64,000 bases of DNA from Minisyncoccota bacterium (lineage in GTDB: Bacteria > Patescibacteriota > Minisyncoccia > Phycocordibacterales > PALSA-1337). Both the position numbers and the translations under genes were made by a program. How positions within the stretch are numbered: position 1 is the stretch's first letter; every line of letters begins with the position of its first letter. Below the pieces are notes generated by a model that saw nothing but the letters and a program-made list of their open reading frames with translations, ran no database searches and was not told where the DNA came from. This document shows, in pieces, positions 24,517-25,358 of this stretch. The stretch lies in assembly GCA_041662725.1 (NCBI GenBank), contig JBAZRX010000004.1, positions 2,668 through 66,667 on the forward strand. Direction: 5' to 3'.

Positions 24517-24592
24517 CAAATCGACATCGAGGCCTCGCCTCGAGGCGACCCAGTAGGTGATTTTACTAAATCAGGCCTCGAGAAACTTCCCA
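24517..24592. repeat. REP (core + B-variant GACCCAGTAGGTGATTTTACTAAATCAGGCC) overlapping RAYT stop
   Basis: The RAYT TGA stop lies inside the AAATCAGGCCTCGAG segment. Confidence 0.85.
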
Positions 24593-25158
24593 ACTTCAGT
24601 TACAGAAAGAATTGCCTTTTGAACTCTTTCTATACCAAGATAATCTCTAAAACTTGAAAATTCATAAGTTTCTGAATAAGCGACAGCTTCGTCTAGGTGC
24701 TCCGCGCGTGCCTCTTTAGACATTTCGGGTTCTTTTATTCCATATGGGTTAAGATGGATATAGTTAATAAGTTTTCTTATGTACATCTCATCGCAAACAG
24801 GTTTTTCATTGTAAGGGCCTTGCCAAATAGTTCCTGAATGACCATATTTTCTATTAAAATACCCTGAATAACCTGTAGCTAAACTATGAATAAAACGGCT
24901 TATACCAAAAGGTTCTAATTCCTTTAATGCAAGATGAATATGGTTAGGCATTAAACAATATGCCACTATGTCTACTAATAAACATTTTCGTTTGGCTTCA
25001 AAAATATTAGTCAGACCAAAACTACTTATTGTGAAAGATTCTTTGTTGTTTGCGATATAAAAAAGTTTAAGCATACGCATATAATCAGAACCTTCACGAA
25101 AAATTGGTTCTTTGTGTGCACCTCTATTATAAATGTGATGATATATGTCTTCGGTCAT
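24571..25158 (-). CDS. REP-associated tyrosine transposase (RAYT), IS200/IS605 TnpA-like (COG1943 family)
   Basis: YHHIYNRG N-motif, HuH motif MPNHIHLAL, catalytic-Tyr region YIHLNPY. 195 aa. Motif-based assignment, not an alignment. Confidence 0.7.
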   Translation of the reverse strand: MTEDIYHHIYNRGAHKEPIFREGSDYMRMLKLFYIANNKESFTISSFGLTNIFEAKRKCLLVDIVAYCLMPNHIHLALKELEPFGISRFIHSLATGYSGYFNRKYGHSGTIWQGPYNEKPVCDEMYIRKLINYIHLNPYGIKEPEMSKEARAEHLDEAVAYSETYEFSSFRDYLGIERVQKAILSVTEVGKFLEA

Positions 25159-25159
25159 A

Positions 25160-25210
25160 GAGGCTTACCCAGTGGCGATTCTGCTGAATCGGCCTCGGGC
25201 GAAGCCTCTA
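25160..25210. repeat. REP (B-variant CCCAGTGGCGATTCTGCTGAATCGGCC + half core) adjacent to RAYT start
   Basis: GAGGCTTACCCAGTGGCGATTCTGCTGAATCGGCCTCGGGCGAAGCCTC. Confidence 0.85.
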
Positions 25211-25292
25211 AAACATACCAGATCGAGATAAATTCCTGATAAAGAAGTGATAAAGATTTGATAAAGAAAGGTTAAAGAAATGATAAAGATTT
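25211..25292. promoter_or_regulatory. four direct TGATAAAGA repeats (~11-12-nt period) upstream of the hydrogenase operon
   Basis: CCTGATAAAGAAGTGATAAAGATTTGATAAAGAAAGGTTAAAGAAATGATAAAGATTTT. Function unknown. The last copy resembles the AATGATAAAAATCGG start of the downstream gene. Confidence 0.3.
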
Positions 25293-25358
25293 TCGAGGCC
25301 TCGCCTCGAGGCGAGGCCTCGTGGTACAATAGAGGCCTCGCCTCGAGGCGAGGCCTCT
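25293..25358. repeat. double REP core separated by GTGGTACAATAG
   Basis: CGAGGCCTCGCCTCGAGGCGAGGCCTCGTGGTACAATAGAGGCCTCGCCTCGAGGCGAGGCCTC. Same GTGGTAC module as 29198-29243. Confidence 0.9.

Follow-up and report, generated by a model that had tools for sequence, protein, structure and literature searches.

The stretch of DNA analysed here (the window) is a 64-kb part of a metagenome-assembled genome (MAG) of a Minisyncoccota bacterium (contig JBAZRX010000004.1) with a G+C content of about 37%. It carries one intact gene for a Y1/HUH tyrosine transposase, enclosed on both sides by members of a palindromic repeat family that is also dispersed around it; all copy numbers of the gene and of the repeats given for the window refer to this one stretch of the MAG. 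The open reading frame (ORF) at 24571..25158 on the minus strand starts with ATG and encodes 195 aa. The three motifs named in the initial annotation are all present: YHHIYNRG at residues 6-13, MPNHIHLAL with the HUH signature H73-I-H75, and YIHLNPY with the tyrosine Y133. A tblastn search of the window found no second copy of the gene, and there is no tnpB partner among the ORFs and Pfam matches of the window. The initial annotation had further placed repeats of the REP (repetitive extragenic palindromic) type on both sides of the gene and its stop codon inside one of them. Both statements were confirmed, and the coordinates needed small trims only. The locus is composed of the following features.

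24571..25158, minus strand: Y1/HUH tyrosine transposase gene, class 2 TnpA-Y1 (like the REP-associated tyrosine transposases, RAYTs), 195 aa; assigned by Pfam, invariant residues and an AlphaFold2 (AF2) model
24527..24582, minus strand: downstream repeat block, core unit and B module; contains the stop codon; fold of -16.1 kcal/mol, z = -3.9
25158..25210, minus strand: start-proximal upstream repeat block, degenerate core unit GAGGCTTCGCCC and B module GATTCAGCAGAATCGCCACTGGG; adjoins the ATG
25211..25293, minus strand: T-rich leader of 83 nt with an 11-nt tandem periodicity (TTTATC motifs), ending in TTATCAGGAATTTATCTCGATCTGGT; conserved at the nucleotide level
25293..25359, unstranded: distal upstream repeat block, a REPIN-like doublet of two perfect 26-nt palindromes, each consisting of two inverted core units

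The downstream block joins the 13-nt core unit GAGGCCTCGCCTC (24529-24541) to a B module of 38 nt (24542-24579), and the hairpin unit TCGAGG-CCTCG-CCTCGA spans 24527-24543. The TGA stop codon (24573..24571) falls within the B module; thus the last residues of the protein (...LEA) are encoded by the repeat. The start-proximal upstream block folds at -16.5 kcal/mol (z = -5.1). Between the two upstream blocks lies a conserved gene leader and not a spacer (25211-25293). The leader motif is found upstream of the gene in four related loci with 0-4 mismatches (L104, L107, L108, L004) and is visible in L109, and a cognate hairpin between leader and ATG is also seen in L104, L107 and L109. The leader is bracketed by cognate hairpins, so that the order is hairpin, leader, hairpin, ATG.

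The distal palindromes are located at 25295-25320 and 25332-25357, measure 28-30 nt each with their flanking bases and are separated by the spacer GTGGTACAATA. Jointly they form a stem of 26 bp (-40.8 kcal/mol, z = -12.4), and a terminator-like call coincides with the palindromes at the transposase locus. In a sigma-70 promoter scan of the locus, matches were no more frequent than in shuffled sequences and we do not claim a promoter. The ORF for the small subunit of a hydrogenase starts at 25366, that is, 8 nt past the distal palindrome. The sole Shine-Dalgarno-like GAGG upstream of this ORF is derived from the repeat, and the repeat may therefore affect the expression of the neighbouring operon.

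By sequence and predicted structure the enzyme is a member of the Y1/HUH superfamily with an intact active site. The Pfam profile Y1_Tnp (PF01797) matches with 36.4 bits (E = 6.6e-9), above its gathering cutoff of 23. An alignment of 31 homologues shows no variation at H73, H75, Y133, H135, N137 and P138, and the window protein has 26 of the 26 family-invariant residues. According to Quentin et al. (2018; PMC6006769) the IS200-type proteins of class 1 carry the signature Y---Q and the TnpA-REP-type proteins of class 2 the signature Y---NP. The sequence YIHLNP corresponds to Y---NP, which places the window protein in class 2 and not in the IS200 class 1, and its motif set (NH[IF]H, [WF]Q, YIHLNP and an SS tail) matches class 2 of that survey. 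In the AF2 model (pLDDT 91, pTM 0.88), Y133 begins helix 124-135/139-142. The best structural match in the PDB is 4ER8, the Escherichia coli TnpA-REP with a REP hairpin (E = 5.9e-5 over 193 columns), followed by the TnpA proteins of ISDra2 and IS608; among the top 20 PDB matches of Foldseek every match with a probability of at least 0.99 is one of these three. The gene class is already known and the public databases already name the gene a transposase: the identical protein and several relatives are labelled 'transposase' at NCBI, and at JGI the identical protein is a 'putative transposase' and several relatives are 'REP element-mobilizing transposase RayT'.

Bertels et al. (2017; PMC5581495) use an abundant flanking 16-mer as an operational mark of RAYT genes. 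Here GAGGCCTCGCCTCGAG is the commonest 16-mer in each flank of the gene and likewise in the whole window (30 occurrences, both strands counted). By this measure the window gene counts as a RAYT, and the flanking repeats indeed belong to the dispersed family, as the initial annotation had supposed. The locus is also found in an independent assembly (L001, Logan, 1324 bp) in which the gene is 100% identical. Both ends of this contig are inside repeats, which suggests that the palindromes fragment short-read assemblies.

Repeats in the window and in its genes

The sequence GAGGCCTCG occurs 83 times in the window, where 0.06 occurrences are expected. Units of the form GAGG-N5-CCTC are present 65 times (0.2 expected), 41 of them being GAGGCCTCGCCTC and nine GAGGCCTGACCTC, and these 65 units stand against a single transposase gene. 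There are twelve B modules, each 3' of a core unit, compared to 0-1 in shuffled sequences. Scans of the whole window with Rfam (gathering thresholds) and for tRNAs gave no matches; the B module is thus not a known RNA. Arrays lengthen in steps of 13 nt with alternating orientation, and palindromes of 26, 39 and 52 nt result. Most units are preceded by T(C/A) and followed by (G/T)A, with GAGG...CCTC between; the boundaries are ambiguous and no target site is claimed.

Altogether the repeats form 28 clusters between 9.2 and 44.5 kb of the window, about 1.4 kb in total, which agrees with the initial estimate of some 30 copies in 35 kb. Of the 25 clusters that do not flank the gene 22 are at most 10 kb away from it (binomial p = 6e-9), and no clusters are found at 1-9 kb and 45-64 kb of the window. 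The crowding of the clusters round the gene suggests local spread or a special region. The field and the clusters outside it are:

15291..33011, unstranded: dense field of 24 repeat clusters centred on the transposase gene, its own flanking blocks included; at least 13 are in frame in housekeeping genes
9184..9231, unstranded: outlying intergenic cluster with variant units GAGGTCAGGCCTC / GAGGCCTGACCTC round a CACACCGCCGCA-type loop, between convergent genes
42486..42574, unstranded: outlying intergenic cluster with variant-type and core units, upstream of the 546-aa ORF 42555..44195
44511..44549, unstranded: outlying 39-nt repeat of three units, in frame in obg (GTPase domain)

The variant module was observed at 9184-9240, 32968-33020 and 42486-42530. 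These positions are all intergenic, one of them between convergent genes, and the module may double as a terminator. A minus-strand ORF of 2951 aa (33018-41873) adjoins a repeat cluster.

Many of the clusters are situated within genes. Seventeen of the 28 lie within long open frames; of these, three were set aside because they are placed at the end of an ORF or in an intergenic palindrome free of stops, and one because its ORF lacks Pfam support (the seventeenth, at 43230, is a stretch of 8 nt and does not count as a cluster). At least 14 of the 28 clusters are internal to Pfam-supported housekeeping genes and in frame. The invaded genes code for a cysteine desulfurase (IscS-like), a pyridine-nucleotide oxidoreductase, an ADP-forming acyl-CoA synthetase, OFOR alpha, the large subunit of a NiFe-hydrogenase, a PfkB kinase, a tRNA-guanine transglycosylase (TGT) and Obg, and with the in-frame repeats they retain full Pfam domain matches.

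The clusters at 16004, 21800 and 29206 had also been considered as intragenic but were downgraded, because each lies either at the end of an ORF or in a palindrome without stops that separates divergent genes. At 29195-29242 there is a perfect 46-bp palindrome, composed of ATTGTACCAC, the 26-mer and GTGGTACAAT, with an GTGGTACAATA arm that equals the spacer at 25321-25331. It sits where the divergent ORFs of FBA (28335..29300, minus strand) and PfkB (29062..30300, plus strand) have an apparent overlap of about 240 nt. The Pfam domains of both ORFs begin beyond the palindrome; it is probably intergenic, and the ORFs are probably over-extended through stop-free repeat DNA.

Comparison with homologous proteins reveals how the repeats change their hosts. 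The TGT clusters at 31222-31297 and 30639-30677 are clean insertions of 35 and 11 aa relative to the TGT of Zymomonas mobilis, and the cluster at 23680-23727 is a 13-aa insertion in OFOR alpha relative to the 65%-identical syntenic homologue of the related locus L105. The hydrogenase cluster and the cluster in TGT loop 2 fill variable loops and leave the net length unchanged. The TGTs of Paceibacterota range from 391 to 501 aa and have low-complexity inserts at the same three loops, and in another genome (L110) the insert of loop 3 is encoded by CCGGAGGTGTAACCTCCGG, the hairpin that flanks the transposase gene there. Colonisation by in-frame repeats may be general in the Paceibacterota lineage. 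All six frames of the 13-nt unit are free of stop codons; in the B modules two or three frames are open. Whether the lengths of the intragenic repeats are multiples of three is blurred by ambiguous insertion boundaries. In the OFOR linker of the L105 homologue (1129-2958; window 23859-23897) we noticed the peptide PRGLAS, which is typical of the window repeat. The current hairpin of L105 differs from the window repeat, so the peptide may be what is left of an earlier insertion at this site.

The hairpin cassette in Patescibacteria

A first protein search returned 340 close relatives of the window protein, and the homologues (E = 1e-30 or lower) form 545 clusters at 50% identity. At least 580 loci are present in collections with one representative genome per species, and the 80 of these loci listed are all from MAGs labelled Patescibacteria or simply 'bacterium'. 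The clade occurs widely in Patescibacteria and seems to be confined to them.

In this family the gene is regularly placed between two copies of a hairpin. Both flanks were available for 73 loci, and the exact match common to them has a median length of 16-17 nt, compared to 9 nt in displaced controls. Of 76 loci, 69 have a motif AGG-N5-CCT within 160 nt upstream of the gene and 67 have one downstream; 66 have it on both sides. It is present in 2.6% of 5902 control windows. The stems are mostly 5-14 bp long and differ in sequence among genomes. What is conserved is the apex, effectively AGGY-N3-RCCT, while the stem sequence co-varies with the gene. The hairpin unit downstream of the window gene fits the motif exactly. 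The upstream hairpin has its median position 78 nt ahead of residue 6; the one downstream is at or just past the stop codon, in agreement with the downstream block of the window. The loop is inverted between the two sides in 33 loci and direct in 26. We regard this split as uninformative for distinguishing a REPtron from an IS200 arrangement, since a loop between palindromic arms can probably flip.

Several relatives carry the hairpin outside the gene flanks as well. The 26-mer palindrome of the window occurs in 22 metagenome stretches at JGI, which come from other organisms, have no nucleotide match to the window and show a lower repeat density. In one of these stretches (L099) a gene of 54% identity has the identical 26-mer on both flanks, and L002 (56% identity) also carries the repeat of the window. 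In another genome (L109/L110) the cognate hairpin CCGGAGGTTACACCTCCGG flanks the gene, lies within it, is dispersed and is in frame in TGT. In-frame hairpins within the transposase gene itself are found at the N-terminus and just past the HUH motif (L104 at 6166, 6410 and 6740; L108 at 10274; L109 at 10238) and explain the variable insert in the alignment of the transposases (A1). A REP inside the transposase gene has been reported before for subclass 2.4 (PMC6006769). Four genomes among the 80 loci hold two copies of the gene, and in three of them (L002/L004, L043/L055, L015/L056) the hairpins of the two copies clearly differ. Distinct hairpins for paralogous tnpA-REP genes in one genome are a pattern described in the same survey (PMC6006769).

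The gene neighbourhood of the cassette is conserved among close relatives, for example trmD-gene-rpoB and gene-OFOR. The closest homologue with known context (P0003 in L105, 73% identity) is syntenic and immediately precedes the genes for OFOR alpha and beta. Homologues with 64-65% identity (L104, L109) instead lie between gatB and obg. In the window the corresponding junction between obg and the 546-aa ORF (44196-44276) has no gene and no repeat; here obg is supported by Pfam, and the ORF 42555..44195 is taken as gatB from the gene order in the relatives and from its length. The cassette has thus either occupied several sites over longer times, or paralogues were lost differentially.

Proposed mobilisation of the repeats and alternative explanations

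We suggest that the protein is a single-strand-DNA nuclease-transposase of the RAYT type which belongs to a hairpin cassette and mobilises the repeats in trans, and we consider this reading likely. Binding, cleavage and mobilisation of the repeats we infer by analogy with E. coli TnpA-REP and with the TnpA proteins of IS608 and ISDra2; the latter are likely the mechanistic template, with recognition of a hairpin in single-stranded DNA and a 5'-phosphotyrosine intermediate. The protein would bind the hairpin in single-stranded DNA, e.g. at the replication fork, and would probably recognise the conserved AGG/CCT apex instead of a GTAG foot. The putative single-stranded substrate is TCGAGGCCTCGCCTCGA with its native flanks. 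Cleavage beside the hairpin would proceed through Y133, with H73 and H75 holding the metal. The strand could then be rejoined elsewhere, so that hairpin units are copied in trans and the gene is not. The units would often settle beside existing units, mostly close to the gene, and form the longer palindromes; the growth of the arrays by 13 nt also suggests that new units land beside old ones. As the unit is free of stop codons in six frames, inserts in surface loops and linkers of essential proteins might survive selection, and this would account for the in-frame coding position of about half of the copies.

Several observations speak against this reading or against a RAYT of the canonical kind, as which the initial annotation had described the system. 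The protein scores above the cutoff of Y1_Tnp but misses the NCBIfam equivalog for RAYTs (NF047646, 40.7 bits against a cutoff of 80). In the PDB a single-sequence phmmer search found no relevant match, and a profile search was marginal for both ISDra2 TnpA and 4ER8 (E of about 0.04). With such marginal matches the clade cannot be placed by sequence alone, and structure and motifs were used instead. The guide tetranucleotide expected next to the hairpin is missing: GT[AG]G or C[TC]AC is at the hairpin foot in none of 129 family hairpins, nor did these 129 hairpins reveal another conserved guide, cleavage motif or flanking base at their feet. The recognition and cleavage rules of E. coli are therefore not transferable. 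About half of the window repeats are intragenic and in frame, not extragenic. In most homologous loci the hairpin is present at the two gene flanks only and absent elsewhere within 10 kb on either side; by the same test the window has 38 distant hairpin copies. Proliferation is thus not a general property of the family. Finally, the 73%-identical L105 has another loop (TCTGA) although homologues of 54-56% identity share the exact repeat of the window, and the divergence of repeat and protein is not strictly parallel. The L105 hairpin TAGAGGTCTGACCTCTA is one substitution away from the minor variant GAGGCCTGACCTC of the window. From the canonical picture there remain the signature Y---NP, the flanking repeats and the match to 4ER8, and these support a RAYT in the broad sense, i.e., a class 2 TnpA-Y1, which is not a canonical RAYT.

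Could the cassette instead be an autonomous IS200-like element? The hairpins would then be its ends, the whole cassette would transpose and the dispersed palindromes would be derivatives of the ends, comparable to MITEs (miniature transposable elements with inverted repeats), and not REPs that a domesticated single-copy RAYT serves. The compact hairpin-gene-hairpin arrangement of 0.8 kb, usually with one hairpin per side, would suit such an element, as would the lack of further hairpin copies nearby in most genomes. Close relatives hold the gene at two sites, between gatB and obg (L104, L109) or beside OFOR (window, L105), and a few genomes have two copies. The tyrosine motif, however, is Y---NP and not Y---Q, and in 64 kb one gene copy is faced by 65 repeat units. 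The paralogues within a genome are divergent with different hairpins instead of being near-identical, synteny is kept among relatives (trmD-gene-rpoB, gene-OFOR), a tnpB partner is missing from the window, and the loops are more often inverted than direct (33 versus 26), unlike the ends of IS200/IS605 elements. We consider an autonomous IS200-like element improbable.

It is also conceivable that the transposase is a bystander and that the palindromes were spread by replication slippage that hairpins promote or by template switching, by gene conversion or by another enzyme. The repeats fill many intergenic spaces at 15-33 kb and would there bracket any gene, so the bracketing in the window alone is weak evidence. 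The 13-nt steps of the arrays with their alternating orientation are what palindrome slippage might give. The Rickettsia palindromic elements (RPEs) are comparable in-frame elements, and we know of no transposase identified for them. A mere bystander, however, is hard to reconcile with the AGG-N5-CCT hairpins that enclose the gene in 66 of 76 loci (background 2.6%), mostly in genomes without local proliferation. The hairpin flanking the gene is identical to the dispersed or intragenic hairpin also in L099 and L109/L110, and the repeat density is highest at the gene. A bystander role thus appears quite improbable to us.

The least probable explanation, in our view a very improbable one, is that the hairpins are chiefly expression signals (insulating terminators or translation control as in IS200) and that the protein has an unrelated host function on single-stranded DNA: the fixed distance of the upstream hairpin, the downstream hairpin at the stop codon, the terminator-like call on the palindromes and the retention of the family in hundreds of minimal genomes, which suggests a benefit to the host, would be in line with it, but one sequence is used on both sides, often inverted, the AGG/CCT apex stays the same as the stems co-vary, an indication of recognition by a protein and not of mere stability, and hairpins are also found within the transposase gene and other genes; an additional regulatory role is still compatible with these observations.

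The proposed mobilisation of repeats in trans by a RAYT-type enzyme invites comparison with the known systems. With E. coli TnpA-REP (RayT or YafM, 4ER8; subclass 2.2 of Quentin 2018, Group 2 of Bertels 2017) the window protein shares the HUH/Y1 fold and the signature Y---NP, and the locus resembles the E. coli REPs and BIMEs (bacterial interspersed mosaic elements) in that a single gene is flanked by dispersed hairpin repeats (a REPtron) and that the flanking 16-mer is the most abundant. The identity is about 14%, however, with NHIH and YIHLNP here in place of DHLH and YIHYNP in E. coli. Compared to the E. coli REPs the window hairpins have no 5' GT[AG]G guide, a stem of 5-7 bp and a loop of 3-5 nt, and they are largely intragenic. 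By the published motif table the nearest group is subclass 2.1 of TnpA-Y1 (Group 1 of Bertels, 'TIRYT'), with NH[YF]H, W[EQ]/FQ, Y[IV]HLNP and a proximal SS tail. The proteins of subclass 2.1 have a median length of 238 aa, a distal helix-turn-helix (HTH) and no REP-like hairpins, whereas the clade described here has about 195-200 aa, no HTH and hairpins on both sides. The subclasses 2.4, 2.6 and 3 (PMC6006769) differ in their hosts (Cyanobacteria/Bacteroidetes, Planctomycetes and others) and in their motifs (YIxNNP, YIH[QN]NP or YV..EQ). The TnpA proteins of the IS200/IS605 family (IS608, ISDra2) are alike in fold, in the chemistry of HUH and tyrosine and in the subterminal hairpins on either side of the gene; IS200 itself has Y---Q, many near-identical copies and often tnpB, none of which we find in the window.

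Intragenic REPs, among them the RPEs, are documented (Di Nocera et al. 2013, PMC3733652), and it is the intragenic proportion and not the intragenic occurrence which stands out in the window. The Rickettsia elements are also in-frame short palindromes in housekeeping genes of a reduced genome and give rise to extra loop peptides. The likeness is one of features; here about half of the copies are intragenic, the 13-nt unit is open in six frames, and there is a cognate Y1 gene with a flanking repeat. Hairpins without GTAG and REPs inside a transposase gene have precedents elsewhere, too. New as far as we found is the combination of a clade spread across the Candidate Phyla Radiation (CPR), a hairpin conserved at its apex, a 13-nt unit open in six frames, about half of the copies in coding sequence and clustering around the gene. 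The 2018 survey of TnpA-Y1 proteins (PMC6006769) does not mention Patescibacteria, and in the literature open to search we found no description of RAYT/REP systems in Patescibacteria or the CPR. We put forward, as a tentative proposal only, that the window holds the most proliferated example so far of an undescribed RAYT subclass present throughout Patescibacteria, which would be characterised by an AGG-N5-CCT cassette without GTAG guide, by mainly local hops and by 13-nt units open in six frames that colonise coding and intergenic DNA with equal ease.

Significance for reduced genomes

Both the spread of REPs and the persistence of single-copy RAYTs still await an explanation, and the available data are nearly all from Proteobacteria. 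Here hundreds of ultra-small genomes of Patescibacteria keep a RAYT-type gene and, with it, a cognate hairpin that can be recognised, and one genome in which the hairpin has multiplied round the gene hints at local movement. The recognition of these palindromes, which break assemblies and let ORF callers run through intergenic DNA, will improve the annotation of MAGs. Repeats that are written into essential proteins tie the mechanism of a mobile element to protein-length variation in reduced genomes. If the proposed subclass is real, it would be a general source of variable loop insertions in CPR proteins, such as the TGTs with their 391-501 aa, and it would offer a natural system in which the RAYT-driven spread of repeats, which has never been directly observed, could be followed in metagenomic time series.

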